Below are positions 18,866-63,395 of a stretch of 64,000 nt of DNA, piece after piece (within the stretch, counting starts at the first letter, position 1; every line of letters begins with the position of its first letter). The stretch lies in assembly GCA_030390025.1 (NCBI GenBank), contig CM059426.1:189534001-189598000 (forward strand), written 5' to 3'. A program made the position numbers and the translations under genes. The stretch is from Squalus acanthias. Taxonomy: Eukaryota. Below the pieces are notes generated by a model. It saw only the letters and a list, made by a program, of their open reading frames with translations. It did not search any database and was not told the DNA's origin.

Positions 18866-19085
18866 AAAAGAACTTGCATTTAGATAGCACCTTTCACTAC
18901 CTCAGGACATCTCAAGGCGCTTTACAGCCAATTAAGTACTTTTGAAGTGTAGTCACTGTTGTAATGTAGGAAACGCGGCAGCCAATTTGCGCACAGCAAG
19001 CTCCCACAAACAGTAATGAGATAATGACCAGATAATCGGTTTTGGTGATCTTGGTTGAGGGATACATATTGGTCAGGACACCAGG
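18866..19085 (-). mobile_element. 3' half of a SacSINE1/Deu-type SINE
   Basis: Reverse complement of the 3' part of the SINE at 44992-45440. Confidence 0.8.
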
Positions 19086-24954: not shown

Positions 24955-26610
24955 TGTAAGGTTTCCAAAATTTACAGATCCCCAAAACCTAAGGAAAAAG
25001 GACTTTGGAACTACCTCAGTGATAGAAATGAATTTGGGCCTAACCTAAGGAATATAAGACCAAAAACCAAGTTTTGGCATTTTAAAACTATGTCTGGGCC
25101 TGTAAAGGAACAAAAAGGTGGGCTCGACCTCTGTAAAAGCAGTTTTGGTTATTGCAGTTAATTACACTGTCTGGGGAACCGGGATGACCCTACTCAAGCC
25201 CCAGCAGTCATTAACATTTTGACAATAGACCCTGGGAGAAGACAGTCCCACCCAAAATAACAGGCCCCATCAAACCGATTACAGGGCCCATCAGAAAATA
25301 TGCATAATACAAATCACTCAAGACCATTCTATAGAAAAGACTGAGTCCAGCCTAGAAACACAAAACACGAAACCAATCACCAGTGATCAGCCAAGGAGAT
25401 CGACAGGATGCAAACCATCCCAAAACCCATTTGACACTTACAGAGCAGTTACTGGTAACAGGCCCGCCAAAATTCAGACAATGAACTGAGTAGATTTGGC
25501 GGGTAGATAAGGCCATGTTCAATGGGTGAGATTGAAGGCCTGTTAAAAACCCAGTTAACGTGCTAGTAAGTCGTTACCGATTTATGAGCCCGCCAAAAAC
25601 CAGACAATGAACTGAGTAGATTTGGCGGGTAGATAAGGCCACTTCAATTTAGTATAATTGAAGGCCCATCAAGCAGTTCAGGGTGGTTCGAGCAGTCAGT
25701 CGCAACCGGTGGTCATCAGAAGAAGAAGAAACCAGGAAGAAGACAAACCGAGCTGGAAGCGAGTCGGCATCGCTCACCACTCAGACACACCTGAGTCCAG
25801 CTCATGAAGATACCACCTCGACGGACCTCCAACAACGGTCCCAACACAGTCACCCGGAGCAACAACCAGCAACAAGTCACCGACAGCTCCACGAGGTCGA
25901 CCGACACACTAAACAAGGCCTAAAGCCATCGCGTAAACCAAAGGCCTCACGTAACCAACAACCGCGCATTACCCCCAACTGACCGGATAATAGCAGGCCA
26001 CCATGACCAACAAAGACCAACTCCAGAGAAGAAAACCCGAAGAATCACAAAGTTTCCACACTACAAACTACTCCTGACTTATCCCTGGGTAAGATTTTCC
26101 CCAAAGACTCTAACCCCTACTGCTAAACCAAAGAAATTGGGTACTCACCAGATAAATCCATAATGACATCCTACCGCATCAGCGGACTCACGAAGACTGA
26201 CCAGAGACTCAGGTGAAGTCCTCTACCGCGTACGGGGTACGGCAGACACTAACCGCCATAAACAGCAAACCCCAAAACCGCGATTTAGCCCAACTGTCAA
26301 AGGATTGGTGGGCATTATCCCTGGTCCTTCAAAACCTAACAACTAGTAAAGTGGGGTTGGGAGGGGTGAAGTATTGTTCTACTGTCATTTCCCTCGCTTG
26401 TACCGAAGTGTTCCCCACTTTTAGAGTGTTAAGACTGTTATTATTTGTGTCTTACCTTTTAATAAAGATTGAAGTTCTTTCATCAAACTCAGTTGTCTGC
26501 TGCACCTTTTGTATCACAACCCCCAAATAAGTCCAAGGTCTAGAACCAAGGGAGTGGGAGTGATTCGAACCGCTCAGAAGTAAAGCTGACACAAGCCACC
26601 ACCCCCTACA
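24955..26610 (+). mobile_element. Solo LTR, family A (about 1.65 kb)
   Basis: TGTA...TACA ends, 4-bp TSD CATG within the host LINE, AATAAA at 26461, and a second copy at 58782-60579. Confidence 0.9.
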
Positions 26611-26650: not shown

Positions 26651-28136
26651 TGTAAAATTCGCAATTATCGCGATTCGAAATAACGAGATAAAGCAGATTC
26701 GTTTCATCAGTTTTATTTAAACAAAATGCTATCATGATTAAACAGGACACAGAAGCCTGTAAAATGGCCGCCGAGCATCATGGCAGAAGCTTCCAGAATA
26801 CAGTGGGCAGACAAGATGGCGTTCGAATAAACATTTCAGTCATTGTACTGGGCAATCGAAGGCCCATCCAGACGCATCAATCCACAACTACCCCCACGGC
26901 TCTACAATGAGAGAGCCTTTCACGGGTGATTAAGTCAGTATTCGAGGAGGCCCCAAAACCCCTCCAGGGAGACTCCTAGCCGGTTCCACAATGGGAGAAA
27001 TATTAACGGGTAATTAGACAGTTACAAGTATCACCGAAACCCATTAACGACAAGAACCACCCCATTCAAGAAGTTTGAGCGCCAAAACATGACAAAAGTT
27101 GAACATTAAGTTTGGGCAGGAGATAAGGAATTACAGTACTATAACTGTAGTGTCCAAACGTCCATCGCTCTCTTATCCTTTTCATTCGCTTGGAATCGTC
27201 TCTTGGCTATTCTCCCGGACGACCGTTACTCTCTCTTGTTCCGCTGATCCCTTTTGGGGTCGACCTCGTGGCGCGCTGCGAAATCGAGCACCATCCCGAA
27301 GGTCGGTAAACGGTGTCTGGACCCGAAGGCCCGAGGAGATGAGATGAGATGAGAAGAGAAGAAGAAGAATCCACGTGCCGCCGCGGTCAGTAAACCCCGA
27401 CCGCGCCCGAAAATATATAGACCATTTTTGAACTCTATAGGTTACTGCACGAACTGACACAGGAAGACTTTTCTTCGAATTCTATCGAACTGGTGTCGAT
27501 CCAGAAAGACTTGTCTTTGAGTTCTACAGCCGGGCCCGAGCACTGTCGAGTTCTTCATGACAACGGGGAGCCCAGCCTGCTTGCAACAGCAGAGCGAGTA
27601 AACAAGTGGGGTACAGAGACCCCTGATCAACACGTGAATAGTCAGGTGCTGTGGCGAAAACATCCGAGCATCGGTTTAGAATTCTCCGAGTTATCACGAG
27701 TGGTGAGCATGGTTCTAGATCCTACAGATCTAGATTAGGACAGGCATTAATAGGGGAGGGTTTTTTGTTTTAAGGATAATTATAATGTGTGTCCCCTTTT
27801 ACGATGTGTCGTGCGCTCCTCGTTTCCCTAAACCTAGTTGCATAAATGTATGTAAGCTTGTACTGTCATTAATCTGTGCTTATGACATGTATTTCATAAT
27901 CTTGAACAATATGCAATAAAGATTTTCCATTTCGTACTATTCAACCGGGTCTACCTGAGTTTTCTCTGCATTACTGCTCTCGCCCCTAAGTCCAGTGTCA
28001 GAACCGTAAGGGCGAGTGGGTCGAACCACTCACAGGTGTCTAGTGCTACCAGGCTGGCTGGAGACCAGAACAGGCAACAAGGCCTAACCCCGCACTAGCA
28101 CCCAGGCTAAGCACAGAGCCACCTGAACCCCTTACA
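26651..28136 (+). mobile_element. Solo LTR, family B (about 1.5 kb)
   Basis: TGTAA...TTACA ends, with the host LINE resuming on both sides and ACC(T) duplicated. AATAAA near 27915; YY1-like AAAATGGCCG and CAAGATGGCG in U3. Confidence 0.82.
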
Positions 28137-30889
28137 ACCTCTTTTTTTAGGTACGCCTAGTGCTGTTCCTGGCATGCTCTTCTACACTCCTTATTGAACT
28201 AGGGTTGGTGATAATGGTAGAGTGAGGGATATGCTGGGCCATGAGGTTACAGATTGTGGTGTAATACAATTCTGTTGCTGCCCCACAGCGCCTCATGGAT
28301 GCCCAGTTTTGAGCTGCTAGATCTGTTCTGAATCTATCCCATTTAGCACGGTGGTAGTGCCACACAACACGATGGAGGATGTCCTCAGTGTGAAGATGGG
28401 ACTTCGTCTCCACAATGACTGTGCGGTGGTCACTGCTACCAATGCTGTCATGGACAGATGCATCTGCGATTGGTGAGGACGAGGTCAAGTAGGTTTTTCC
28501 CTCACCACCTGTCGCAGACCCAGACTAGCAGTTATGTCCTTCAGGACTCGGCAAGCTGTGGTGTGACCGAGCCACTATTGGTGATGGACATTGCAGTCCC
28601 CACCCAGAGTACATTCTGTGCCCTTGCTACTCTCAGTGCTTCTGTGGTGTTCAACATGGAGGAGTACTGATTCGTCAGCGGTAGGTTGACCTAAAGCTAT
28701 GAGACTTCATGGGGTCCCAAGTCAATGTTGAGGACTCCCAGAGCCACTCCTTCCCCACTGTATACCACTGGAGGAGTTTGGGACATTGGCTGAACGGTAT
28801 GATTCTGTCAGGCTATTGCTTGACTAGTCTGTGGGACAGCTCTCCCAATTTTGTCACAAGTCCCCTGATGTTGGTGAGGAGGACTTAGCAGGGTCGACTG
28901 GGCTGGTCGTTGCCGTGTCCGTAGTCAGTGCCAAGGTCGATGCCAGGTTTCATTCTTTTTCGTAGCGGTTAGTTACAACTGAGTGATTTGCAGTTAAGAG
29001 TCAACCACGTTGCTGTGGGTCTGAAGTCACATATAGGCCAGATGTGATTTGTCAGACTTCCTTACCTAAAGGACATTCGTGAACCAGATGGGTTTTTATA
29101 ACAATCCGATTCATGGTTACCATTACTGATACTAGTAATTATTCCAGATTTATTTAATTAACTGAATTTTAATTCCCCAGCTGCCATTGTGGGATTTGAA
29201 CTCACGCTGGATCATTAGTCCAGGCCTCTGGATTACTAGCCCAGTGACATTACCAGTACGCTACTGTTCCCTGGTACAGTAAAAGCTCCCACCTGACAGA
29301 TCATCACTTTCCTCAGCCACAAGCTGTTTCTCACTCCATCTCCAGCACAGATTCTGTAGGCTTTCCACTTTCCACTCTCCATCCACTCTCACCTCATTGG
29401 AAGAACTCTCTCACCATTGACAGAATGCTTCTGTCATCTCTACTTCACCTGCCATCTATTCCATCAAAGTGGGTGCTACTTATACTGTCTCACCTTAGTC
29501 CTCAGAATCCAACCACAAATCAGCCCCAACACCAGTAGCACCAGGCACACCAGCAGCACCAACAACAACACAAAGCTTCTCCGCAATCACCTGATGCTGC
29601 ACAGGACAGAGGGCATCAGCACCAGATTACATTGCTGCCCGGGAGGCCAGGGATGGCCTCACCATGGCCAGATTTACTTTACTTGACGCTGTACAACTTG
29701 GCTGCCACATGATGCGCCAGGTTGGCACCACCCCACACCAATACCATAAAGCAACCCTACAATGTCCAAGCCATTCCTTTCACACTCATGACCATTGCGG
29801 GGGGTACCGTTATGTCTCACCATTCACTGCAACTCACTAAGCCACTTCCAAAGGTGCACACAAATCTGTCCAAGAACAAAAAGTGTTGAAAATAAAGGTT
29901 TCAATGTCTGACAGCACATTAACAGAAACTTTACATGAACATTGGATAAAACACCCAAGTGGCTACCCTTGTTTGATGTTAATTGGTATGATTGCGCTAG
30001 GGTGAGGGTGAGGGGTGGCTAGTGAGATGGGGATGCGATAATGTAGATAGAGAGAGAGGGATGGGTGAAGGTGCAAGGTAAGTCAGTGTGAGTAAGAAGG
30101 TGCAGGAGTAGGGTAGGGAAGGCAGAGTGATGGGGATGTGATGAGAGACACAGCAGGATGAAGGTGAGTGTGGCTTTGTACTAACATTTCGTGATCTAAT
30201 GAGATCATTGAAAGGTTTGCGCCACTGCACCCAGGTCCTCCTGACAACATCCCTGCTTGTGACCTCCTCTACAATGTGCAACCAGGCTGCGTTAGTCTCC
30301 TGGGGAGGTTTCTTCCACCCATGACTCCCTCCATAAGCATATGGAGGGACTCATGGGAGAACCTGGGTGCAGCCCTGCACCTCTGTGCAGTGACTGTCAG
30401 TATTTGCAGCACTTCAATGCTGTAAAACACTGACAGCACAAATGTCAAAGTAAGGCGGCCATGGCCTCTTTAAGGAAACCGCCTCAAGACGTATCATGAA
30501 TGACCTCACCAGGCCCACTCCTTCTAATTGGGCCGGGAGAGGCGCTGGGCAGGCTCCATTAAGGTAAATTCATTCTGTACAGTGGGATGGAGCCAACAGC
30601 GGGCCCGCGACCCGCCAGGGACATCCGCCCGCCCCGACCCGCTGAGGTGACCAAATCTCGGCCATACTCACTTTCTACTGGGTCGCTGCATAGCCAATAG
30701 GAGATTTTTCTACTTCCTAGCCTAGGTATGCGAAGGCAAACTGTAGCACCTTCGCTGCCACTCCAGGTGAGGTCAGCTAGATCAACACAGACCAGGGATC
30801 TCATTCGGAATCTAAGCCTAGTCTGTATGGCTTAGCAATGGACTGTTTAGTGCCTTTACCTAGCTTCCCTAAAGAAAGTTTCTGAATGA

Positions 30890-31393
30890 GAGGAATTTTA
30901 AAGCCCCCATGATGAGCGGGAAGGGGTCGAGGGGAGGTTAATTTGGGAAAAATGGGAAATCCGACCACAACCCGTTGCGAATGCGCCTGCTTCCTGTTTA
31001 ACTGCAGCGGGTTTGGGGGCGTCTGAGTGACCGGCTCTGGAGAGCCGGGTCAGTGATTATAATATTTAAATGAGGCTCCGTTCCTCTCACCCACCCCCCC
31101 CTCGATCTCTCCCTACCTCCTCGCTGCCTCACTCCGAACAGCCGCCCCACCAATCCCCGATCTTCGCCCATTGCCAGGGACCGTCCCCAGCTGTGGTCTC
31201 CTACTGTAGACTTACCCACCCGGCAGCTGGCCATCCTTCAATCTGATTGGCTGCCGGGCGGGCAACAGAGTAAAAAAATTCTAATGAGGTCCTGCCGTTA
31301 AATTTGTCGGACCTCCGCCATTCCGGTATTTCCAGGTTTCACAGCCGCAGACATGCGTCCCCTTTCCCTTTCGCCTCCCCGGAAATATTGGGG
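30890..31393. mobile_element. Degenerate Harbinger-type MITE
   Basis: Resembles 54887-55977 (CAATCTG..TGGCTG, CCTGCCGTTAAATT), with eroded TIRs. Confidence 0.5.
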
Positions 31394-31634
31394 TGATTAT
31401 TATGTGTATATACATACATATATTTATATATTTTATTATGCACACACTTGTATAAACTCACATAAAGAATAGCAGATGCTTGGAAGCACTGCTCTTTGGG
31501 GTTCCATTGGAGTCCATTGTAACTCCTGAAGAATTCCAGAAAATGGTGACGCCAGGTTGTGCAAGGCACTGAGATTTTCCAGGCAGCCGTACAAGCGGTG
31601 GAACTTCAGACAGACCCTTAAAATGCAAATGATA

Positions 31635-32552
31635 GGGGGCGGAATTGGGGATAGGGACGCCCTGCGAAAAGAGGTTCTGCTTCTTTGGCTTATTTGACTG
31701 GATGAGGTGAGGCAAACCAGCCTCCAGATGGGACCAAGTTGGCTCCACCATGGGGTCCTGATCAAAGACGCGACCCATCCCTCAGGACTGGAGAATTTAA
31801 AATAAATTCGGGAATGCCTCCCTTACAGGGGGGCCAAGAGGGGACACCATGGGGTCTGGGAGGGGCCTGAGCAACCTCCTCCTCAAAAGTGGGCAGGCGC
31901 TAGATTGGCTGGCTTGGATGACAAATTTAGCAGCGAGATGGCCCTTGCATCGAATCTGCACATGGGTTCGGGCCACTGCTAAATTAGTCAGGCCCACCTT
32001 TAAGGTGTCCTGGGCTGCCAGCTAAAACAGGCGTTAGGCTCCTCGCAGAGGTTAATGAGGGGCCTGATGCCTGTTTAAGGATCTCCTGGGGAATTGTTTT
32101 TTGATGAGTGGAGCAGGAGCTGATTTAGCCCGCACAGCGTACTACAGCGGCCATTGTGGCCTGAACAGCGGGCCGCCGACAACAGGCAAGTTTACTATTT
32201 TTTTAAATTATAAAAGTGTTCCTGTGGAGCCAGAAGGAGTAGGAGTGCTTCTCTGACTCTACAGTCCATGCGATCATCCCCATCCCCCCACCACCCCACC
32301 CCCCCAGCCTCACTATCCCCACTCCAAGCCCCCTCCTACGACTTACCTTTGGGTTGCTTAAGACGAGGCAAGCGGCCCTATTTTCATCTTAGTAAAATAC
32401 GCAAGCTACCTGTGGAGGCATAACAGGCACCTGCAGCTCATGCAAATAATCCTGAAGAGGCTCCAAGATCAATTTTGCGCTGGTGCCGGGCCTCCCGGTT
32501 GGGCCACGTGTTGTCGAAGCGCCGCTGGTTATGGATCGAAAAAAATGGGCCT
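31635..32552. mobile_element. Probable degenerate Harbinger-type MITE
   Basis: GC-rich block with GGAGCAGGAGTGCT-like internal motifs and TIR-like ends. Boundaries are approximate. Confidence 0.35.
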
Positions 32553-33699
32553 TGACCAATGTTCACCTCAATTACTGTTACTTTGGTGATAATTGCACGC
32601 GTCCCGGTAGAAATGGTTTACACCTCCAATGAACTACCACCGGAACCTTTTTATTAAACTGTTCCCAAGCATTCATGAAGCCAATCACGTTACAACAAAA
32701 ATGGCTTGAGTGCCAGTTCTTTACCCTTAATTGCACTTAATTGTAATTGATTTTGTTATTGAATTTATATCAACTTTAAACACACAACCGCCCATAAAAA
32801 GTAAAAGGATAAATCCATTACTGGCAGCATTTTAGGGAACTTTATATACGATTACACTCCAGCTCAAATGGTATTATAGCACTTGCAGAAATATACAAGG
32901 TAGCCTTGAGTGTTGGCACAGTATGCGCCACACTACAGCCTCGAATAAAATGTCAGCCTTGCTGAAAGAGCTGAAGATCTGGCATTGCTCAGAGTGATTA
33001 AGAGAATTCTGGAGTAGAAATTCGGCAGCGGCCGGTTTCGGACGCGAAGGCGGCAATGCGGCTGGAGCCGGGAGGACCGAGGCCGGCCCGAAATTGGGCC
33101 TCAAGTTTCATGTAAAAAATCTGCGTAGTTTCCAATGCCTGTCATGCCTGCCCCTCTGCAGGATCGAACTTCGGGCCACGTGCCTTGCCAAGAGTGGCCA
33201 AAGGTAAGTACCGGAGGGATGGGGGTCAGGTGGGATGGGGGAGAACAACAGGAAATGGGCTGATCACGGCCAGCAGCCGCTCTCAGGAGTGCTGTGCGGC
33301 TGGGAGGAGCACTCCCGATCCTTCTAGCTCCACATGAATTTTTTTTTGTTACTATTTTTGGTGGCAGCCATTCCTCCCATTCCCAACAGTACAGAGATGT
33401 CTTACTTCCTTCAACATGGTTTATCTCCCTCTAGCCCCTGCTCAGCAGTTTCTCTCTCTCTCTTTCATACTTCATAGATTTTCTCTTTACTTTCAACAGG
33501 ATCACTTTTTCCATCTCACAACAGACTAATCTAGGCGATGATTTTCTGCTCCACACCTATCAGTTCCACAGGCTCCCAAAAAGACCGTGCTGTTGCTGCT
33601 GTCGGTGATGCCTTTCAAACATTTGAGCCACTTTATGTATTCATCATGTGATACATTTTAATTTTAGGTCTATATATGGAGTGAATAAAGAGTGAATGA

Positions 33700-34215
33700 A
33701 TGTCAGGATCCACATGCATGCTGATAACACCCAGTTCTACCTCACCACTACCTCTCTTGACCCTACTACTGCCTCTCTTTTGCCACGCTGCTTGTCCCAC
33801 ATCCAGTATTGGAGGAGCAGAAATTTCCTCCAATTAAATATTGGGAAGAACAAAGCCATTGTCTTCGGTCCTCGTCACAAACTCCGTTCCCTAGCCATTG
33901 TCTCAATCCCTTTCCCTGGCCACTGTCTGAGGCCAAACCTGCCTTTTTGCCACCATGGAGTCCTATTTGAACTTCCAACCCCATATCCTCTCCATCACCA
34001 ACACCACCTAATTCCACCTCCCTAACATCGACCATCTCCGCCCCTGCACCAGCTCACCTGCTGCTGAAACCCTCATCCATGCCTTTGTTACCTCTAGACA
34101 CGACTATTCCAATTTTGGCCTCTTGTGCATCCCCGATTTTCATTGCTCCGCCATTGGCAGCTGTGCTTTTAGCAGCCTAGGCCCGAAGCTCCAGAATTCC
34201 CTCCATAAACCGAAA
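33700..34215 (+). mobile_element. L2 LINE fragment
   Basis: HMHADNTQFYL...SRNFLQLNIGK; homologous to 11265-12226. Confidence 0.82.
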
Positions 34216-34349
34216 CCAAGTTGTTGTTATTGTTGAAAGAGGAACTGGAACTGTCAAGGTCACTATCTTGGGGAATATTTTTGATGTGATGTGATTGAAA
34301 AGTAAAACATTTGCATTCTATGATTAATAAATAACAAAAGTAGAAAATA

Positions 34350-34906
34350 ACAACAACGACAACTTGCATTTATATAGCGCCTTTAACGTAGTAAAACGTC
34401 CCAAGGCACTCCACAAGAGCATTACCAAAACAAAATTTGGCACCAAGCACGTAAGGAGATATTAGGACAGTTTGGTCATAAAGGTAGGTTTTAAGGAACG
34501 CCTTAAAGGAGGAGAGGGAGGTAAAGAGGTGGAGAGGCTTAGGGAGAAAAGTCCAGAGCCTAAGGCCCTGGTAGTTGAAGCCACGGCCTTCAATGGTGGA
34601 GCGATTAAAATCGGGGATGCCAGAATTGGAGGTGCGCAGATCTCGGAGGGTTGTAGGGCTGGAGGAGGTTAATGATAAGGAGGGGCGGGATTTGAAAACA
34701 AGGATGAAAATTTTAAAATTAAGTCGGTGCCAGACCAGGAGCCAATGTAGGTCAGTGAGCACAGGGGTGACGGATGAACGGGACTTTCTGCGAGTTGGGA
34801 CATGGGCAGCAGAGTTTTGGATGAGTTAATTTTATGGAGGGTGGAAGATGGGAGGCCGGCCAGGAGAGCATTGGAATAGTCAAGTCTAGAGGTAACAAAG
34901 GCATGG
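34350..34906 (-). mobile_element. L2 LINE 3' fragment
   Basis: HAFVTSRLDYSNALLAGLP and LHWL...FKI, with a (TTG)n tail. Confidence 0.85.
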
Positions 34907-35982
34907 AAAACCAATTAAAAAGGAAAAATGAGATTAAAACACAACATACGAGGGAGAGGAAAACTGATCGATGACTTGGTGGTTACAACAAACATGAGAG
35001 TCCTGCAAACCCAGTAAGGCAATTTTAATGTCCCTACCACCCCATTTGTGCCTAAAAATGCAGTGGTAGTGAGGCTAAAATAATGCATTTAGTTGAAACA
35101 CTGACTTACCACCAAGGCCTACTCCATTCTGGACATCAAGTGGATTTCAATCTTGCCACCAGAGGTCTCGCCCAGAAACGGGCAAGAACCTCCTGAATAT
35201 ATGTTACTTGGAAATCAAATGTAGTTATGACCCCTGCTGCTATTTTTCTCGCTTCCCTATGGATTACCGCCAGTCCCTGGCCCATCCACCAAACATGGGC
35301 AGTAGAAGTCAGGCATACATTAATAGGATCTTTATATGCAGTCAGGAAACACTAGAAGTAAGTACTCATTTTTATGCAATCGCTTATGGACTTTGAGCCT
35401 CAAAGGATTCCATATTTAATCTCCTTTCTGCTGCAATAATTTTGCTTGCTGCTCAAAACGGCTGCTTCCTATCACTCGCGGCACTGCCACCCCTCCCTTT
35501 TAAGGTGCTGCTGCAAGATCTCCAATATCAGTCACGCTGCCAGATTTCTCACCCCCAGATTGGCGAGCTGCCTATAAAGAGCATGTTAAAACATCCAATA
35601 CACAATTTATTATTCTGCTGCTAAAGTGCATCTGTGTGTAACATGGTTCTCCCCTTTAATGCCTCAGGTCAATAAGATGCTGAATGCTCTGAGCAGATCC
35701 TCAGGTTGAGTAGATCTCACAATAGCCCTCTTGTCCTTAAATATATTTTTTAAGTAGGATTCCTGAAGTCAATTAGAATTTTTGTGTGTCTGGGCAAGTT
35801 GGAAAATTGGAAATGATTGGCTTTCTTTTTTTTAGGTGTGGCAAGGATATTTTAACATGATAGTGACGCCTGAAGTGAAACAGATGTGTCTCAAATGTTT
35901 ATGTCTAATATGTATAAACACGCATACAAATATATAAAATTTGGATTTCCAATGGTATTGTTCACAGTGGGTCAGAAATTAT

Positions 35983-38735
35983 GGCCGGAATTTTGCTGGC
36001 ACTCAGAGGGCAGGTTCGGAGGTGGGTCCCCTGTCAAAAATCAAAAAGATTGACAGCGGGTCGGGATCCCGCTGTCAACCTGCCTCCATGTCAGTTTCCC
36101 AAGTGTCGGGTCCGTCTGCGCTTTACAGACCCAACACCAAGCGGCGGGGTGAGCCAATTCAGATACTTAAGAGCTTGTTAAAAGGTACTTAAACACCATT
36201 TTACCATGTACTTATCATTTTACCAGCAGTGACTAGTGGGGTACCGCAGGGATTGGTGCTAAGACCCCAGTTATTCACAATATATATTAATGATCTCTAA
36301 GTTTGCAGACGACACAAAGCTGGGTGGGCGTGTGTGCTGTGAGGAGGATGCAGAGAAACTCCAGTATGATTTGGACAGGTTGGGTGATTGGGCAGATGCA
36401 TGGCAGATGCAGTACAATGTGGATAAATGCGAGGTTATCCACTTTGGTGGCAAAAACAGGAAGGCAGATTATTATCTGAATGGCAATAGATTGGGAAAAG
36501 GGGAAGTGCAATGAGACCTGGGTGTCCTTGTGCACCAGTCGCTGAAGGTAAGCATGCAGGTGCAGCAGGCGGTTAAGAAGGCAAATGGTATGTTGGCCTT
36601 CATAGCGAGAGGATTCGAGTACAGGAGCAAGGATGTCTTGCTGCAGTTGTACAGGGCCTTGGTGAGACCACACCTTGAGTATTGTGTGCAGTTTTGGTCG
36701 CCTTATCTGAGGAAGGATGTTCTTGCCATGGAGGGAGTGCAGCGAAGATTCACCAGACTGATACCTGGGATGGCAGGAATGATGTATGAGGAGAGATTGG
36801 GTCGATTGGGCTTGTATTCGCTAGAGTTTAGAAGAATGAGAGGGGATCTCATTGAAACTTACAAAATTCTAACAGGACTAGACAGACTAGATGCAGGAAG
36901 GATGTTCCCGATGGCGGGGGAGTCCAGAACCAGGGGTCACAGTCTAAAGATAAGGGGTAAGCCATTTAGGACTGAGATGAGGAGGAATTTCTTCACCCAG
37001 AGAGTGGTGAACCTGTGGAATTCTCTACCACAGAAGACAGTTGAGTCCAATTCATTAACTATATTCAAGAAGGAGTTAGATATATTTCTTAAGGCTAAGG
37101 GGATCAAGGGATATGGGGAGAAAGCAGGGACAGGGTACTGAATTTGGATGATCAGCCATGATCGCATTGAATGGCGAAGCAGGCTCGAGGGGCTGAATGG
37201 CCTACTCCTGCTCCTATCTTCTATGCTTCTATGTTTCTATGTTTTCATGAGGTTCCCGGTGCTCTGGGATCACGTCAGGTAAGTACGTTGGGCTGTAAAT
37301 GCCTCTCCATTCCTCTGAATAGTAGACAGCTGCAAAAGTGGTATAAAAGCTACCATTACACAGCTGTTCAACTTCCAATGTTAGAAGCTGGAGCCTTCAG
37401 AATTTAGAGTACACTTTTCAGCTTTATGCAGTTTGGAAGTGTTTGGAGTAAACTCTCTATCCACTGTCACCTCCTTGGAGCAAGCTCTCTCACCATTGAC
37501 AGATCGCTTCTGTCATCTCAACTTCAGCTGCCATCTATTCCAGCAGCATCGGTACCCTTGAAAAAATCTCACCTTGGTCCTCAGAATCCCACCACAATCA
37601 GCCCCAACACCAACATCACAAGGCACACCAGCACCACCAACAACACCACCAACTTTTCCGCAATCACCTGATGCTGCACAGGACACAGGGCATCAGCACC
37701 TGACCACATTGCTGCCCGGGATGCCAGGGATGGCCTCACCATGGCCAGATTGACTTCACGTGATGCTGTACACCCTGGCTGCCTATATGATGCGCCAGGT
37801 TGGCATCATTCCACACCAGCACCATAATGCATCCCTACAATGTCCAAGCCATTCTTTTCACACTCATCACCATTGCGGGGGTACCGTTATGTCTCACCAT
37901 TCACTGCAACTCACTAAGCCACTTCCAAAGGTGCACACAAATCTGTCCAAGAAGGCAAACACATTAACAGAAACTTTACATGAACATTGGCGAAAACACC
38001 TAAGTGCCTGCCATTGTGTGTTAGTTGGTATGATTGGACAAGGATGCGGGTGAGTGTGGGGTGGCTAGTGAGATGGGGATGTGATGATATAGATAGAGAG
38101 AGAGGGATGGGTGGAGGTGCAAGGTGTGAGTAAGGATGTGCAGGAGTAGGGTACGAAAGGCAGAGTGATGGGGATGTGATGAGTGGCACAGCAGGATGAG
38201 GTTGAGTGTGGCTTTGCAGTAATGTTTTATGATCTACTGAGATCATTGAAAGGTTTGCGCCACTGCAGCCTGGTCCTCCTGACGACATCCCTGCTTGTGC
38301 CCTCCTGTGCAATGTGCCACCAGGCTGCGTTGGTCTCCTGGGGAAGTGTCTTCTGCCCATTGGAAGGGAAGAGAACCTCCCTGTGTGCTGTGACTCCCTC
38401 CATAAGCATAGGGAGGGAGTCATGGGAGAGCCTGGGTGCAGCCGTGCACCTTTGTGCAGTGCTTGTCAGTGTTTGCAGCACCTCAAAGCTTCAGAACACT
38501 GACAGCACAAATGTCAAAATCAATGTGGACCTGGTCCCTTTAAGGAAACCGGCTGATGACGCGTCATCAATTGGCGTCATCAGACCCGCTTCCTTTTAAT
38601 TGGCCGGGAACCTTGCAGGGCAGGCTTAATAAGCCTAATCAACGGAAAATTCTTCTCACAGAGCGGGATGGAGCCGGGAGCGGGGTCACAACCCGCCACC
38701 TACCTCGGCCGCACTGAGCCCGCCTCGGTAGGCTG
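35983..38735. mobile_element. Internally deleted Harbinger element (family of 22763-30663) with CR1 insertion
   Basis: Left TIR GGCCGGAATTTTGC. A Myb/SANT exon on - at 38227-38481 (AAPRLS...AAWWHIA...LQWRKPFNDL). The right TIR was not found. Confidence 0.78.
36229..37243 (+). mobile_element. CR1 LINE (HER1-like) 3' fragment
   Basis: SGVPQG, ISKFADDTKLGG and a 203-aa open C-terminal segment, followed by the 3' UTR and a (TTCTATG)-type tail. Confidence 0.93.
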
Positions 38736-39394
38736 CAAGGGAGGAGGATTATGGGACAGGACGTGATAGAACGGTGCAACGATCCAGTGGAATAGTTTGG
38801 AAAAAAGTTTCTAAAACTTCTTAGCAGAGATAGTGAAGCAATTGTTTTCTGATTGGTTTCTGCTAAATAAATATAGTCTGTTTACTTTACTGATTGCCGC
38901 TAGATAAATAGCTAGCACAACAGTATAAACAAATCTTTATGTAAAAAAATATTGTTTTTGAATCCTATGTATAAACAGAATTAAGTACAAGTGCTTTAAT
39001 CACCCCTTCTGTCTCTATCTGTCCATCTCTCATTTCTCCTTGAAGTAGATAATGGAACCTGTGTGAATTTTTCCCTGAAAAAGGCTTAAAACATTTTTGC
39101 AGCTTGTTTTTAAATCATTAGAAAAACAAAAAAAACATCAATTGTTTTATAACCTGAAGAAATGCTTTGAATTTTTCCACTGAGAAAAATTAAAGTCAAA
39201 ATTCTAAATATCAAAATAAAAAGATACTCTAATCATCAACCTCTGTTTTCTCTCTATCTTTGTCTCTTTCAGCAGCCTCTCTCTTGAAGCAAGACTTAGT
39301 ACTTTGTAATAGTTTTCCTCTGAAACTTTTTCATAAAAAAGCTTTTAAAATTCATCTACAGCTTGGTTTTAAATCATTTGGAAAATAAACATAG

Positions 39395-41328: not shown

Positions 41329-42055
41329 GGGGGGGGCGAAATTTGGTTGCTTTGTGCCTCCCGTTAGCGCCCTAAGAGGGCGCTAACGAGGTGCAAAGCA
41401 ACTAGCGCCCAGGTGCGGCGCCGCCAATGCCTCCCGCGAAATTCAGGAGGTGGCGGTAACCGTTAGCTCCCCGCGGCGCTGTGTCGCCGGCGATGACATC
41501 ATTGCCGTGCGCAGTGCCCCGCTCGCTCCCCGGCCGCGATCTTCGGTAGCGCCCCCTGACTTACCGCCGGACGCTGTGTCCGATGGGGTCAGGGAGGCCT
41601 ACCTGCGCCGCTAATTAAAGGCGAGGTGCCGGGCGGCCATTTTTGTTGCTGGCCATCTGCCAGCACCTGCCCCCTCTGCCGTCCCCAGCCTCCTCTTCAG
41701 CCCTCCCCCCACGGAGTGCCGGCTGCGCTCTGTGAGCCCGGTACTTCTCTTGAGTGCCGGGCTCTTTTCCCGGCACTCCGATCCCTGGTGGCCCAGCTGG
41801 GCCCCGGGTCGCGCTGCGCAAGGCCCCTCCCCTTTAAGAAGGGGAGGAAGGCCTGCAGTACCGCGGCACGTAGCGCCACGATATTCCCTCGCAGCGCCCC
41901 AAGAGGGAGGCGGGGCACTTCCAGTAGCACCCCGCTTCCCTCTTGGGGCGCTACCAATGAATTTCAGCCGCGGGGCGCTAATTTTTTCGGGGCACTAAAA
42001 GTAGCGCCCCGGCAAAGTTAGTGCCCCAAAGGGGGCGCGACTCAATTTTTCCCCC
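41329..42055. mobile_element. CpG-rich Harbinger-type MITE
   Basis: G-run...AAATT / AATTTTT...C-run termini, TSD CAG and repeated TAGCGCC motifs. Its ends are shared with 46111-47004. Confidence 0.7.
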
Positions 42056-44160: not shown

Positions 44161-44991
44161 ACGCGGTTTGCATCACTTTGTGGCTTATTTCCCGTAAACC
44201 ACCCAGTGTGTATCTTCTGTTTACTGGCTATTGATGTTGTACTGTGAAGCTAACAATGCACAGGATGTTACATTTTATTGGAGCTAACCATTGGTATTAT
44301 CGTACTAAATGTCTTTTAACCTTTAAACTTCCATCACTCCAGGGAATTTTTTTAACTCCCTGGGACAACCAATTTCTTGTTTTCAGCTCACACACACCCC
44401 ACACTGGATTTTACGACAATCTGTCAGCTTTCAGCTAGTCCACAAATGACCAAATTTATTGAGTTCAATTTCACAACTTCCTATGGTGAGAATTTGAACT
44501 ATGACCTCTGGGCTGCTAGTCCAGTCCCATAACCACTACTTTACCGTACTATGACCACTACATTCTGGTACCTGTGATTCTAAAGTTTGTGTCAATCTCC
44601 AACAGATCAGGATTCAAATTATCTATTCTTTTAAAAGTCTTGAATACTTCAATAATATCTCCCATGAGACTTAATTGTTCCAGAGTAAACATTCCAGGCT
44701 CTTCAACCTCCAACAGTGACTACACTTCAAAAGTACTTCATTGGTTGTAAAGCGCTTTTGAGCCATCCTGAGCTTGTGAAAAGCGCTGTACAAATGCAAT
44801 TCTTTCTTTCTCTCCTTATAGCTCCAATATGTTAAGCTAGGCGTCAGTTTCGCTGCCCTTTTCTGCAATGCCTCCAGTGCCTGGACATCCTTGCTGTAGT
44901 AGAACTGAACACTGTACTCCAGTTATGGCCATGCCAGTTCCTTGTACAAACTCATTATCATCTCCTGTGATTTGTGCTCTATACCTCTAGT

Positions 44992-45440
44992 GTCAGCCAT
45001 GGCTCAGTTGGTAGCACCCTCATCTCTGAGTCAGAAGGTTGTGGGTTCAAGTGCCACTCCAGAGACTTGAGCACAAAAAGCTAGGCTGACACTCCAGTGC
45101 AGTGCTGAGGGAGTGCTGCACTGTCGGAGGTGCCATCTTTCAGATGTGACGTTAAACCGAGGCCCCGTCTGCTCTCTCAGCTGGATGTAAAGGATCCCAT
45201 GGCACTATTTTGAAGAAGAGCAGGGGAGTTATCCCTGGTGTCCCTGAATAAACATCACTATCTGGTTATCAAGTAATTATTACATTGCTGTTTGTGGGAG
45301 CTTGCTGTGCGTAAATTGCCTACCGCGTTTCCTACATTACAACAGTGACTACACTTCAAAAAGTACTTCATTGGCTGGAAGGCGCTTTGGGATGTCTGGT
45401 GGTTGTGGAAAGGCATTATATAAATGCAAGTCTTTCTTTC
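44992..45440 (+). mobile_element. tRNA-derived SINE, SacSINE1/DeuSINE-like, near full length
   Basis: A box TGGCTCAGTTGG, B box GGTTCAAGTGCC, Deu-like core (GGAGGTGCC.TCTTTC.GATG.GACGTTAAACCGAGGCCCC) and an L2-like tail. It is inserted in an old minus-strand CR1 remnant. Confidence 0.85.
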
Positions 45441-46110
45441 TTTCTATACATCCTAAGGCCCAGTTATCTTTCCTCACTGCTGCCTCACATTATTACTTTC
45501 AGTGAGCTGGCCACAAAAGCCTCAGTTCCTTATCCCGTGTTAGGTCCTGTAGCCTAGAGAAATTTGGGTAGATTTTCCATGGGAGTTCCCCGATCTAACG
45601 CTGTAACTGTCTGTTAACGCCACTTCCCCGAGGTTTCTGCTAAAAGTATAGCGGGAGATCGGGGAATCCTGTGCAGAAATGCTACCTTATTTAATTTACA
45701 GGAGTGCTGGTCAGCGAATAATGAGGCTGCAGCCCATGAATTATCGCTCATTCATTTAAATGGCTAGACAACCAAAGGTCTTTGGGACTATGATTTCTCA
45801 ACCAATGCTCCCTGTGAGTGCTGTTCCTCACAAGGAGCACCAATTCGGAAATCAAGCTTTATATTCCCTTTGTTTCCTTTCCCTTGACTTATTACATTGC
45901 ATTTGTTTACATTAAATGTCATTTGTCACCTATCCAACCTATTCAAATTCCTTTATATAAATAAAGTTCGTTCTTCCTTCCTTCCTTGTTCCCTATTGTC
46001 TGATTCTCCTCTCTGCCAATATGGTGCATCTGCAAACTTAGACAAATTTGTTTCTGCAGTTGTTCCACATCATTTATGTGCACTGGGAACTGCCATAGCA
46101 CAGATTCCAG

Positions 46111-49734: not shown

Positions 49735-51429
49735 GTTTTTAAAAAAATTTTATGGGATGTGGGCGTCGCTGGCAAGGCCAGCATTTATTGCCCATCCCCA
49801 ATTGCCCTTGAGAAGGTGGTGGTGAGCCACCTTCTTGAACCGCTGCAGTCCGTGTGGTGAAGGTACTCCTACAATGTTGTTAGGTAGGGAGTTCCAGGAT
49901 TTTGACCCAGCGACGATGAAGGATCGCCGATATTCTTCTAAGTCAGGATGATGCGTGACTTGGAGGGGAACTTGGAGGTGGTGGTGTTCTCATGTGTCTG
50001 CTGTCCTTGTCCTTCTAGATGGAAGAGGTCGCGGGTTTGGGAGGTGCTGCCGAAGAAGCCTTGGTGAGTTGCTGCAGTGCATCTTGTAGATGGTACACAC
50101 TGCAGCCACGGTACGCTGATGGTGGAGGGAGTGGATGTTTAAGGTGGTAGAGGGGGTGCCAATCAAGTGGGCTGCTTTGTCCTGTATGGTGTCAAGCTTC
50201 TTGAGTGTTGTTGGAGCTGCACTCATCCAGGCATGTGGAGAGTATTCCATCACACTCCTTACTTGTGCCTTGTAGATGATAGAAAGGCTTTGGGGAGTCA
50301 AGAGGTGAGACACTGGAACTCACTGCCTGAAAGGGTGGTAGAAGCAGAAACCCAAACCACATTTAAAAAGTAATTGGATGTGCACTTGGGATGCTGTAAC
50401 CTGCAGGGCTACGGACCAAGTGCTGGGAAGTGGGATTAGGCTGGATAGTTCTTTGTTGGCCGGCACGCACACGATGGACCGAAATGGCCTCCTTCCATGC
50501 TGTAACTTTCTATGATTCTATGACACTCGCCGCAGAATACCTAGCCTCTGACCTGTTCTTGTTGCCACAGTATTTATGTGGCTGGTCCAGTTAAGTTTCT
50601 GGTCAATGGTGACTCCCAGGATGTTGATGGTGGGGGATTCGGTGATAGTAATGCCATTGAATGTCAAGGGGCGGTGTTTAGACTGTCGCTTGTTGGAGAT
50701 AGTCATTGCCTGGCACTTCTGTGGTGCGAATGTTACCTGCCACTTATCAGCCCAAGCCTGAACGTCGTTCAGGTTTTGTTGCATGTGGGCATGGACTGCT
50801 TCATTATCTGAGGAGTTGTGAATGGCGCTGAACACTGTGCAGTCATCAGCGAACATCCCCATTTCTGACCTTATGTTGGAGGGAAGGTCATTGATGAAGC
50901 AGCTGAAGATGGTTGAGCCTAGAACACTGCCCTGAGGAACTCCTGCAGTGATGTCCTGGGGCTGTGATCATTGACCTTCAATCACCACAACCAAATTCCT
51001 TTGTGCTAGGTATGACTCCAGCCAGTGGAGAGTTTTCCCCCCTTCATTTTAATGGGGCTCCTTTATGCCTCAGTCGGTCAAATGCTGCCTTGATGTCAAG
51101 GGCAGTCACTCTCACCTCACCTCTGGAATTCAGCTCCTTTGTCCATGTTTGGGCCAAGGCTGTAATGAGGTCGGCAGCTGAGTGGTCTTGGCGGAACCCA
51201 AACTGGGCATCCGTGAGCAGGTGAGTAAATGCCACTTGATAGCACTGTCGATGACACCTTCCATCACTTTGCTGATGATTGAGAGTAGACTGATGGGGCG
51301 GTAATTGGCCAGATTGGATTTGTCCTGCTTTTTGTGGACAGGACACACCTGGGCAGTTTTCCACATAGACAGATAGATGCCAGTGTTGTATCTGTACTGG
51401 AACAGCTTGGCTAGCGGTGTGGCTAGTTC
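49735..51429 (-). mobile_element. CR1-group LINE fragment (family of 23088-29271), 5'-truncated
   Basis: MFADDCTVF, NYRPISLLS and LDIKAAFDR, with the same 3' end as the other copies. Confidence 0.9.
50313..50521 (+). mobile_element. Short CR1 3'-end fragment nested in a LINE
   Basis: WNSLPERVVEAE..TFKK, 3' UTR and (TTCTATGA) tail. GACACT occurs at both junctions. Confidence 0.8.
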
Positions 51430-57340: not shown

Positions 57341-57745
57341 TAGCCATGGCTCAGTGGGTAGCACTCTCACCTCTGAGTCAGAAGGTCATGGGTTCAAGTC
57401 TCACTTCAGGCGCTGTCAGAGGTGTCGTCTTTCGGATGAGATGTCAAACCCGTCTGCCCTCTCAGGTGGATGTAAAAGATCCTATGGCACTATTTTGAAG
57501 AAGAGCAGGGATGTTCTCCCTCGTGCCCTGGCCAATATTTATCCCTGAACCAACATCACTAAAACAAGATTGTCTGGCCATTATCACATTGCTGTTTGTG
57601 GGACCTTGCTGTGTGCAAATTGGCTGCCATGTTTCCTATATTCCAACAGTGACTACACTTCAAGAAGTACTTCATTGGCTGTAAAGCACTTTCTAATGTC
57701 CTGAAGTCATAAAAGGCACTATGTAAATGGAAGCCTTTCTTTCTT
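57341..57745 (+). mobile_element. SacSINE1/DeuSINE-like SINE with internal deletion
   Basis: Homologous to 44992-45440, with A and B boxes present. Confidence 0.85.
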
Positions 57746-58344
57746 TTGGGGTTTTATGGGGCTTTCGGCTCAGATTCTTAGCTCATAAACTCTCTCAGCG
57801 AGTGAGCCTCCCTCAGTTGCATTGCTTTGCAGTTGATAACAATGGGGTAAATGGCAGCTTAATCACTGTAGGGGGCAGATGCAGCTCCTCAAGCACCTCT
57901 CCCCCGCAAAAAAAAAGAAAACAGGCTGAACTGCTGCCACTACTCCCATAAAGATTGACTGCATCACCTATCACGAACCAAGATTTGGGTACTATGAAAA
58001 CCTAAGAATAAGTGATTGAATGCTGCAATGAATGACCAGGTGAAAACACTTTGAAAGATACAATAAGCTTTGTTGCTGGGAGTCAAGCCATGGCAACAGC
58101 CACTTGCCTGCCCGTTGCCATAACAACTGCCAACTGACTGCTTGAGATGGACAAGGGTAGCATGTCGGTTAACTTATCCACAAACCTTCTCAAACAAAGA
58201 GAATTCTGATTTTTGTGAATTAAGCACAAAATTGACAAATTCTCAATAATTTGTGTTTTCTAATTTGGCTTAGTATGTTTTTTTCTAGCAGTGTCCTACT
58301 ATACCAAGGTGATTCACATAGCAGCACAACCAGAAAATAATGAA

Positions 58345-58479
58345 CGATAGCAAAATACTGCGGATGCTGGAAATCCGAAATAACAACAGAAAACGCTGGA
58401 AAAACTCAGCAGGCCAGGCAACATCCGTGGAGAGAGAAAGAGAGTTAACGTTTCAGGTCGATGACCTTTCATCAGAACT
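58345..58479 (-). mobile_element. 135-bp hammerhead-bearing Penelope-like/retrozyme-type insertion
   Basis: 14-bp TSD CAGAAAATAATGAA at 58331-58344 and 58480-58493. A close homolog lies at 59417-59551. Confidence 0.85.
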
Positions 58480-58480
58480 C
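58442..58480 (-). ncRNA. Minimal type I hammerhead ribozyme motif
   Basis: GAGUU CUGAUGA A AGGUC-AUC-GACCU GAAA CGUU AACUC: stem I GAGUU/AACUC, conserved core, stem II, and palindromic AACGUU in place of stem III. Confidence 0.75.
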
Positions 58481-59415
58481 AGAAAATAATGAAGCTCACT
58501 GCTGATTGTAATAGTCTAGCTGGAGCACCAGGTAGCCTAAAGGTTCGGGCCCATGACAGTCTTGTGGCAAGGATATCCACCCTACTGTCTGTGTGCTGTT
58601 TTCAAGTAAACAACACCTGCTCTGCAATGTCAATCTGAAAAATCTATTAGGCTATTTTTTAAAGGTTAGCTGAGGAAACTTTTTTCAAGAAATATGAGGG
58701 TTGATTTTGGTATGCACTGCAGACCAGGCAGGCAGTGGGTGGGGAGTCGGTTCCGACAGTCTGATGACGTTGGTAGGAGGCTGTAAGGTTCCCAAAATTT
58801 GCAGATCCCCAAAACCTAAGGAAAAGGGACTTTGGAACTACCTCAGAGTGATAAAAATGCATTTGGGCCTAACCTAAGGAATTTAAGACCAAAAAACCAA
58901 GTTTTGGCATTTTAAAAACATGTCTGGGCCTGTAAAGGGACAAGGAGGTGGGAACGACCTCTATAAAAGCAGTTTTGGATATTGGAGTTAATTACACTGT
59001 CTGGGGAACCAGCAGACATTAACATTTTAGCAATGAACCCAGGGAAAAGACAGTCCCACCCAAAATACAGGCCCCATCAAAACCGATTACAGGGCCCATC
59101 AGAAACAAGCATAATAAAACCCACTCAGACCCATTCTATAGAAAGACCGAGTCCAGCCTAGAAAACCAAACACGAAATCAATCACCGGTGATCAACTGAG
59201 GAGATCGACAGGATGCAAGCCATCCCAAAAGCCATTTGACACTTACAGAACAGTTACTGGTAACTAGCCCGCCAAAATCAGACAAAGAACCGAGCAGATT
59301 TGGCGCGCAGATAAGGCCATGTTCAATGGGTGAGATTGAAGGCCTGTTAAAAACCAGTTAACACGCTAGTAAAGTCATTACCGTTAACGAGCCCGCCAAA
59401 ACCAGACAATGGACT

Positions 59416-59453
59416 GGGTTCTGACGAAGGGTTTCGACCTGAAACGTTAACTC
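59416..59453 (+). ncRNA. Minimal type I hammerhead ribozyme motif
   Basis: GGGUU CUGACGA A GGGU-UUCG-ACCU GAAA CGUU AACUC. Confidence 0.75.
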
Positions 59454-59551
59454 TGTTTCTCTCTCCACGGATGTTGCCTGGCCTGCTGAGTTTTTCCAGC
59501 GTTTTCTGTTGTTGTTTCAATTTTCCAGCATCCACAGTATTTTGCTATCGT
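59417..59551 (+). mobile_element. 135-bp hammerhead-bearing Penelope-like/retrozyme-type insertion
   Basis: Absent from the sister LTR at about 25605. 9-bp TSD AATGGACTG at 59408-59416 and 59552-59560. Confidence 0.88.
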
Positions 59552-61205
59552 AATGGACTGAGCAGATTTGGCGGGCAGATAAGACCACTTCAATTTAATA
59601 TAATTGAAGGCCCGTTAAGCAGTTCGGGAGGGAAGGCAGGTCGAGACAAGTGGGTCATCAGCATCACACACACAGTCGAGTGTGGAGACAAGGAGCAACA
59701 TCACCGACCCAAGCCGAGCTGGAAGCGAGTCGGCATCGCTCACCACTCAGACACACCTGAGTCCAACTCGTGAAGATACCACCTCGACGGACCTCCAGCA
59801 ACAGTCCCAACACAGTCACCCGGAGCAACAAGCCGAAAAGCCACCGACGGCTCCACGAGGTCGACCGACACACTAGACAAGGCCTAAAACCATCGCGGAA
59901 ACCAAAGGCCTCACGAAACCAACAACCGCATATTACCCCCAACTGACCGGGTAATAGCAGGCCACCGCAACCAACAAAGACCAACTCAAGGGAAGAAAAC
60001 CCGAAGAACCGCAAAGTTTCCACTCTACAAACTACTCCTGACTTACCCCTGGGTAAGATTTTCCCAAAGACTCTAAACCCTATTGCTAACCAAAATAAAT
60101 TGGGTACTCACCGGATAAATCCAAACCGACATCCTACCGCATCAGCGGACTTGCGAAGACTGACCAGAGACGCAGGTGAAGTCCTCTACCGCGTATGGGG
60201 TACGGCAGACACTAACCGACATAAACAACAAACCCCAAAACCGCGATTTAGCCCAACTGTCAAAGGATTGGTGAGCATTATCCCTGGTCCTTCAAAGCCT
60301 AACTTAGCTGGTAAAGTGGGGTTGGGAGGGGTGAAGTATTGTTCTACTGTCATTTCCCTCGCTTGTACCGAAGTGTTCCCCACCTTTAGCGTGTTAAGAG
60401 TGTTATTATTGTGTTTTACCTTTTAATAAAGATTGAAGTTCTTTCATCAAACTCAGTTGTCTGCTGCACCTTTTGTCACAACCCCCAAATAAGTCCAAGG
60501 TCTAGAACCAAGGGAGTGGGAGTGATTCGAACCGCTCAAAAGTCAGAGGTGAAGCTGACACCAACCACCACCCCCTACAGGCCCAATTGATTTTGGTGGT
60601 CGGGCCTCATTTAGAACTGTTGAGCTGGCAGTGCTAATCATGTCTTTATAGGCAGCTCACCAATTGGGAGGGTGGGAAATCCGATGGGGCAGAAAATGAT
60701 CGTGGGCCTGCAGCAGCACCTTAAAGGGGAGGGCTGAACAAATTGGGGGTTAAATGGAGCAACAGATTTCAGTGGTAAGGAAATGTTATGTGTAAACACA
60801 GCAGCAAGGAGATGAACTTATGGAAGCCTTTAATGCTCAAAACTCTCAAGAGACTGAAGAAAGAAATGAGTTCCAGACCTGCTTGAAGCTTTCCCTGACT
60901 GTATTTAAGGATCCCTTTAGCTAGCGCTGTAACTGGTCACCTCCCGACCTCTATATTGATGGGTTGAGGAAGTAGCGGCAGCAGCATTGACTGAGATAAA
61001 ATGGTGTTGGGAGTCCTGACAATGTCAGTTGAACCCTAATTGAATATTTTAATTAGGCCCCAGCCTGCTTCCGGTGGGAGCACTGGCCGCCTAAATGCTC
61101 AAAGATCAGAATGGACAGTCATCCAGTGGTAAATCACCGATTTTCATCCCGCTACCACCCTGTTTACAGCCGAAAATCAGCCTCATGGAATGTTTTAGAC
61201 ACTCT

Positions 61206-62697: not shown

Positions 62698-63284
62698 ATA
62701 GCATTTGTCAAAGTAGTTTCCTGTGCATCAAGACGAGGCTGTTGATTTCTGTGCCTGGGGTTAAAGTGCATGCACACATCTGATGCACCTGGAGGCAATC
62801 ATCAGCACAAGTGGTTCAGAAGGCATCCTCTGATTTCATTTTGCCAGAGGTAAAAGAAAAATAGCTGTATTTACTGATATATGAATCAGACAAACAGATG
62901 CAGGTCTGCAGGCAACACATCACATGTTGCTAGAAAGATGTGCGAGGGCATAATTTTTCATGATTATTTTCTCCTTCACTTCGTATGTAGAGTATGGTAA
63001 AAGTAGCACTGAGCGGTCGGATCGGATCGCATTCATTTATTGTATAACCATGTATTAGAAAGAGTATTTTGAAAGTTTTGTTTCAATTACTTCAGTTAAA
63101 ATTGCAATACAGACGTGCAACGTAAATATAAATGTTTATTAGAGGACCTCCTAAAGATTCTGTCATGTTAATAATGCTTGGCTTCTTGTTTCAACTAATA
63201 TTTGGATATACATGTGAAAAACAAGACGCAAGCTGTTATCTTGTGATAGCAGATTTATGTGATATCTTGTGCAGTTAGAAAGAA

Positions 63285-63395
63285 AAGAAATACTTGCATT
63301 TATAAAGCACCTTTCATGACCTCAGGACATCACAAAGCGCTTTACAGCTAATTATATACTTTTGAAGTGTAGTCACTGTTGCAATGTCGGAAACT
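63285..63395 (-). mobile_element. SINE/L2-type 3' tail fragment (further pieces at about 44710-44810 and 63840-64000)
   Basis: Reverse complement of the SacSINE1-like tail. Confidence 0.7.

Follow-up and report, generated by a model that had tools for sequence, protein, structure and literature searches.

A 135-nt unit that begins with a minimal hammerhead ribozyme occurs twice in the 64-kb stretch of Squalus acanthias DNA analysed here (the window), and most likely corresponds to the terminal ~135 nt of a pseudo-LTR (pLTR) from an elasmobranch Penelope-like element (PLE), whose clade is probably Neptune. We lean towards reading the unit as a by-product of an autonomous PLE whose 5′ breakpoints have a hot spot at the edge of the ribozyme, not as a separate family. 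The ends of such units bear on the role of the hammerhead in PLEs, where its cleavage is described as weak and dispensable in vitro, and whole clades as being without the motif (PMC11167929, PMC4209133, PMC8557442). Should the 5′ breakpoints of many shark and ray copies prove to be concentrated at the edge of the ribozyme, a census of ends would test models of the insertion template (uncleaved versus cleaved, spliced versus unspliced, linear versus circular) without new biochemistry; if the unit is only a truncated terminal repeat, it is ordinary repeat annotation that happens to carry a ribozyme label.

The two copies, A and B, are real and separate insertions (Table 1). A sequence-only reading of the window had reported both, each with its own target site duplication (TSD) of 14 or 9 bp; both copies were confirmed at the stated coordinates, and both TSDs are exact. 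By chance, duplications of 9 bp or more appeared in 2 of ~2,990 random flank pairs. Copies A and B are 92.5% identical over 134 nt, and the 64-kb window contains no third or partial copy. The same reading had placed copy B inside an LTR whose sister copy is empty, and this was borne out: copy B is a true insertion because the sister solo LTR has its target once, with one mismatch, and unoccupied.

Table 1. Coordinates of the 135-nt copies, their hammerheads and target duplications, and the two solo LTRs in the window.
Feature	Position	Strand	Remarks
Copy A, 135-nt unit	58345..58479	-	Ribozyme + 102 nt
Copy A, upstream TSD	58480..58493	-	14 bp
Copy A, downstream TSD	58331..58344	-	14 bp; initial 1-2 bases may be the element's own
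Copy A, minimal type I hammerhead	58442..58480	-	Predicted cut between 58447 and 58446
Copy B, 135-nt unit	59417..59551	+	
Copy B, upstream TSD	59408..59416	+	9 bp
Copy B, downstream TSD	59552..59560	+	9 bp
Copy B, minimal type I hammerhead	59416..59453	+	Predicted cut between 59448 and 59449
Host solo LTR holding copy B	58782..60579	+	TG...CA ends
Sister solo LTR	24955..26610	+	4-bp TSD; empty site 25606-25614

The two solo LTRs are ~87–88% identical and have an internal repeat of ~125 bp, with copy B lying inside the second repeat. The TSD of the sister LTR is a clean 4 bp, while that of the host LTR is 3 bp or shifted. The sister LTR also adjoins an RT-bearing LINE relic (~23100-24954, with RVT_1 at 24154-25044 on the minus strand), and related LINE pieces are found at 15782-17482 and 49737-51414.

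That the copies share length and ends, as had been claimed, holds with qualification. Both measure 135 nt, but their equal lengths result from two offsetting one-base differences: copy A has an additional base in loop II, and copy B an additional 3′ T, which cannot be told apart from the beginning of copy A's TSD. Both TSDs end in CTG, and the final G forms the fifth pair of stem I; because this last TSD base completes the stem, the true 5′ end of the unit is uncertain by 1–3 nt, and a microhomology of 1–3 nt at the 5′ boundary of both copies is probable. The TSD of copy B implies a bottom-strand nick following an ATT, which the endonuclease of an anole PLE prefers (PMC11167929); this is not seen for copy A.

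Terminal inverted repeats, a feature of MITEs, are absent, and the unit ends are not complementary; there is no AATAAA or ATTAAA in the unit, and no Pol III A or B box, in agreement with the sequence-only reading. Contrary to that reading's claim that there is no ORF, one sense frame is open across both copies for 44–45 codons. A coding role for this frame found no support, on weak evidence, namely 0 RT-bearing proteins among 193 candidates; with the open frame of copy B as query, an initial protein search scored none of its 8 candidates. A special structure in the 3′ 100 nt of the unit was likewise unsupported (z = -0.4 to -1.2).

These properties bear on a non-PLE origin, in which a LINE (CR1/L2) mobilised a SINE-like or captured fragment, or DNA repair inserted it. 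LINE RT relics are present in the window, and TSDs of 9–14 bp also fit LINE-type insertion; however, the unit matches none of the other repeats in the window, has neither a Pol III head nor the LINE-like or simple-repeat tail of a SINE, and is associated with a PLE-type ribozyme and inverted pairs, making this origin highly improbable. The window contains no PLE ORF, with 0 GIY-YIG matches among its 183 ORFs of at least 78 aa; its ORFs include Harbinger-type and LINE RT relics (family names read from Pfam domains). Fragments with DDE_Tnp_4 and Myb/SANT-like domains at 3191-5534, 30000-30350, and 38230-38490 are, we assume from the Pfam domain names, decayed PIF/Harbinger-type DNA transposons. 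A dispersed SINE-like family with a common 3′ part (57342-57746, 44995-45446, 18865-19086, 44709-44814, and 63276-63394) presumably resembles the shark Deu-SINE SacSINE1, and self-comparison of the window gave imperfect palindromes of 46–86 bp at 1038-1083, 15572-15623, 17971-18028, 41346-41402, and 41880-41965.

A hammerhead fold had been proposed at the start of each copy, and both copies fit the published pattern of PLE minimal hammerheads: a CUGANGA-H core, helix II, GAAA, the palindromic 15.2/16.2, UH, and a helix I of at least 3 bp. Three Rfam scans with E values up to 10 detected no hammerhead family; a minimal hammerhead descriptor matched only these two loci in the window, and nothing in 300 Markov-shuffled 64-kb windows. 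The hammerhead of copy A is composed of a stem I of 5 bp, to which the final TSD base contributes, the core, an extra A, a 5-bp stem II, and GAAA-CGUU; in copy B stem II is 4 bp long, is capped by a UUCG loop and, compared with copy A, carries two G-U wobbles. The usual G10.1-C11.1 pair is absent, its place taken by A-U in copy A and by G-U in copy B—both of which occur in the published alignment (PMC4209133). Pairing is kept between the copies, as had been noted; as a sign of selection this is weak, since 15 of 38 single transitions are tolerated by the fold and the chance of three tolerated substitutions is ~0.06. Both copies contain an intact, uncleaved minimal hammerhead, with the predicted cut 32–33 nt inside the unit.

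Folding predictions place the active form away from the energy minimum, and both monomer and dimer are predicted to misfold. With tertiary contacts not counted, the active dimer compares with two misfolded monomers at -17.9 vs -21.8 kcal/mol for copy A and -10.1 vs -18.8 kcal/mol for copy B. PLE-type hammerheads are described as having low or protein-assisted activity (PMC11167929, PMC4209133), and the predicted misfolding would be in keeping with this.

The same energies are relevant to the proposal, made from the sequence alone, of an independent retrozyme spread through multimeric or circular RNA. In such a miniature retrozyme, tandem units would be cut as dimers, circularise, and be copied once round, so that each insert has unit length and begins upstream of the cut. 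The fixed length, the permuted position of the cut, and a motif with the palindrome needed for dimer cleavage agree with this model; circular templates have been proposed for PLE hammerheads (PMC4209133), and frog genomes contain dispersed monomers of tandem retrozymes (bioRxiv 10.64898/2026.07.22.740005). However, the active dimer is computed to be less stable than two misfolded monomers for both copies, the CTG upstream of both copies does not match the unit's own 3′ end, and retrozymes as described are tandem arrays with mostly canonical hammerheads (PMC7229834). Head-to-tail units are absent from the 64-kb window and from all 10 related readings described below (0/10), where some relatives instead form head-to-head pairs with variable junctions, and one extends upstream. 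We consider the miniature retrozyme quite improbable. Nor does a start upstream of the cut need a circle, as had been argued, given that uncleaved RNA is the dominant template of an anole PLE (PMC11167929).

This anole PLE provides a close parallel for the 3′ end of the unit. Its RT initiates 111–118 nt after the start of stem II (85–92 nt past the cut), genomic ends are found there, and ribozyme mutants insert normally (PMC11167929); the 3′ end of the unit is 123 nt past the start of stem II. Because the anole RT initiates similarly on uncleaved RNA, the common 3′ end and the retained cut site can be explained without a circle. Insertion from the 3′ cleavage product is unsupported, as no copy in the window starts at the cut.

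Mobilisation by a Penelope-like RT/endonuclease, another suggestion of the sequence-only reading, is supported. In the by-product reading that we favor, a PLE protein would nick the target and reverse transcription would begin on uncleaved RNA at a fixed internal site, ~100 nt downstream of the ribozyme cut. Synthesis would tend to stop at the hammerhead's 5′ edge, after which the cDNA would join the target via 1–3 nt of microhomology, or fold back to produce head-to-head pairs. The stop might be caused by the ribozyme fold stalling the RT, which would also yield inverted pairs. Alternatively, the RT might run off a template made from a 5′ pLTR that has its transcript start or a splice junction at this edge; in D. 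virilis Penelope, helix I is where the intron ends, 46 nt downstream of the start site (PMC4209133, PMC2377424). Head-to-head pLTRs, solo pLTRs, TSDs of 8–10 bp, and microhomology junctions are described features of PLEs (PMC3846280, PMC8557442, PMC8969392), all of which are reported for rotifer PLEs (PMC3846280), and minimal hammerhead motifs are mostly single copies that probably derive from truncated PLEs (PMC4209133). The PLE feature of variable-length TSDs is seen here at 14 and 9 bp; an inverted 5′-truncated copy beside a pLTR is found only in relatives (3 of 10, one marginal), not in the window copies.

Two random truncations would be expected to coincide within 1–3 nt only 0.15–3.5% of the time; the 5′ coincidence of copies A and B, together with the span of a database relative (P0004), is as compatible with a discrete family as with a hot spot. 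The corresponding alternative is an independent non-autonomous family derived from the pLTR, in which solo 135-nt masters give read-through linear RNA that is copied in trans by a PLE protein. Copies A and B share their ends, which P0004 approximately matches, and the two copies differ in stem II yet stay paired, suggesting separate functional sources (p ~0.06); additionally, rotifer pLTRs are sufficient in cis (PMC3846280) and non-autonomous Chlamys elements exist (PMC8557442). On the other hand, the unit has no internal promoter motif, read-through RNA alone does not fix a 5′ end, the ribozyme cannot liberate the unit because its cut is 32–33 nt inside, and there are longer and inverted forms among the relatives. 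An independent family of this kind is unlikely.

As a proxy for related DNA we used spurious protein readings of the unit, which gave 12 protein hits, 10 of which were kept; P0002 (687 aa, 10 short stretches) was dropped, as was P0003, an internally duplicated partial match judged to be chance. Two named ray proteins (Mobula hypostoma and Hemitrygon akajei) end in a sense reading of the unit, and since two of the kept relatives are ray proteins, the unit's family is elasmobranch. The two predicted ray proteins with this ending, P0011 and P0012 (C-type lectin and CBFA2T1 isoform), suggest exonisation, by which the unit would supply exon sequence to predicted proteins; the acceptor AG that P0012 would need before its internal ATG is GG in both window copies. 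P0008 and P0009 are gene models that join the unit to unrelated LINE fragments—these two, along with P0011 and P0012, are probably spliced models and uninformative on unit ends.

Three of the 10 readings contain antisense-then-sense (head-to-head) pairs with the junction inside the ribozyme or adjacent to it: P0007, which scores 33.9 bits vs a shuffle maximum of 18.1; P0001, at 26.6 vs 21.9; and P0006, marginal at 22.7 vs 21.9. At codon resolution, the antisense copy in P0007 runs to unit position 3 and the sense copy from position 9, the junction of P0006 is at positions ~18 and 11, and that of P0001 at ~18 and no more than 38. The query had no part in selecting the sense half of P0001 or of P0007, and a partial one for P0006. 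P0010 is ambiguous—its antisense half was unscored in tblastn—and is not counted as an inverted pair.

Of the other readings, P0004 appears to span unit positions 135 to ~4, and P0005 continues for 29 codons (at least 87 nt) upstream beyond the unit's 5′ edge. The P0005 extension is pyrimidine-rich on the sense strand, like the unit, with a pyrimidine-starting codon in 1 of 29 residues; strand bias this extreme was found in 2 of 7,132 open stretches of the window. Its residues before the edge would allow a pyrimidine tract and then an AG, although the extension could alternatively be a pyrimidine-rich flank. The sequence-only reading had held that random 5′ ends would mark the copies as truncated Penelope terminal repeats; the outcome is divided, in that ends do vary, but they cluster in the ribozyme.

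Other searches added little. Pfam on the 10 readings passed only host domains of the two ray proteins at its cut-offs, an ESM Atlas query with P0005 gave no usable match, and blastn of plasmids and phages found no match to the unit. A GTDB pattern scan for stray copies returned 0 matches; two later GTDB pattern matches were rejected as chance, their similarity being confined to the pattern itself.

The probable link to the Neptune clade comes from P0007. On the opposite strand, its residues 1-96 are compatible with segments of the Neptune1_Ap RT (supplementary alignment, PMC8557442), matching 18 of 36 and 16 of 32 positions in two thumb/linker blocks, which a single gap separates, and 11 of 23 positions across the YIDD motif. 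Null means for these three comparisons were 6.6, 6.8, and 3.0, and maxima 16, 17, and 10 (27,000–39,000 offsets); positions were counted by eye, and the comparison was chosen after inspection of the data. The order on the PLE strand of P0007—inverted unit, direct unit, YIDD, thumb/linker—would be the layout of a full PLE with an inverted 5′ copy, as read from one spliced gene model of another genome. The co-occurrence of unit and RT may be chance, as two of the three other models of P0007's source type join LINE fragments. Exact linker motifs had three matches in the Craig supplement, which were unrelated and lend no support, and neither that supplement nor the full texts searched contain shark entries or the unit motif.

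A more general proposal, which we make tentatively and with some doubt, is that elasmobranchs hold a large class of fixed-length 'strong-stop' PLE insertions that run from the RT initiation site to the 5′ edge of the hammerhead, and that some of these insertions multiply as a non-autonomous PLE family, the smallest of its kind. The edge would reflect either a splice acceptor or transcript start, for which D. virilis Penelope offers a precedent, or stalling of the RT by the fold of the ribozyme. If such a class exists, its ends would be an in vivo readout of PLE template choice and of the ribozyme's role in transposition.

In the literature that we searched (Repbase, Dfam, and subscription papers lay outside the search), we found neither this elasmobranch unit nor a hot spot of breakpoints at the hammerheads of PLEs; Repbase, Dfam, or the supplementary tables of the retrozyme preprint (bioRxiv 10.64898/2026.07.22.740005) may well list the unit already. 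We regard it as a PLE pLTR stub with a known type of ribozyme, in a lineage for which we found no description. The minimal hammerheads of PLEs reported by Cervera and De la Peña (PMC4209133) share with the unit an extra base after A9, a helix I of 4–5 bp, the lack of helix III, a palindromic CGUU end (as in the Tetraodon Poseidon motif), and mostly single dispersed copies. The portions of Table S1 and Fig. S3 of that paper covered here include no chondrichthyan example, and fixed, TSD-flanked units such as those seen here are not described in the portions covered.

The Anolis Poseidon PLE (Frangieh et al. 2024, PMC11167929) has its 3′ end at a similar distance downstream of the hammerhead, and insertion from uncleaved RNA would be common to both systems. 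In contrast, Poseidon belongs to a different clade from that of the unit's one link, which is Neptune-like, and its initiation site is an AC-rich stem-loop, whereas the unit's 3′ end is U-rich; no ORF is attached to the unit. Non-LTR retrozymes are, like the unit, non-coding, pLTR-related, and equipped with a type I hammerhead, and dispersed monomers occur; however, they are defined by tandem arrays (at least two hammerhead units) and circRNA (PMC7229834; bioRxiv 10.64898/2026.07.22.740005), while the unit and its relatives, in the window and the 10 readings, form solo units and head-to-head pairs only. The mean chondrichthyan retrozyme consensus is 363 bp, compared to 135 nt here, and the same preprint derives retrozymes from pLTRs and notes 5′-truncated single-repeat insertions and dispersed monomers (bioRxiv 10.64898/2026.07.22.740005). 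The Penelope pLTRs of Adineta vaga (Arkhipova et al. 2013, PMC3846280) resemble the unit and its relatives in their short terminal units, head-to-head junctions, TSDs of 8–10 bp, and microhomology at 5′ junctions; they differ in being 181–218 bp long with promoter-like motifs, and in that the solo pLTRs are without TSDs or bracket captured DNA.
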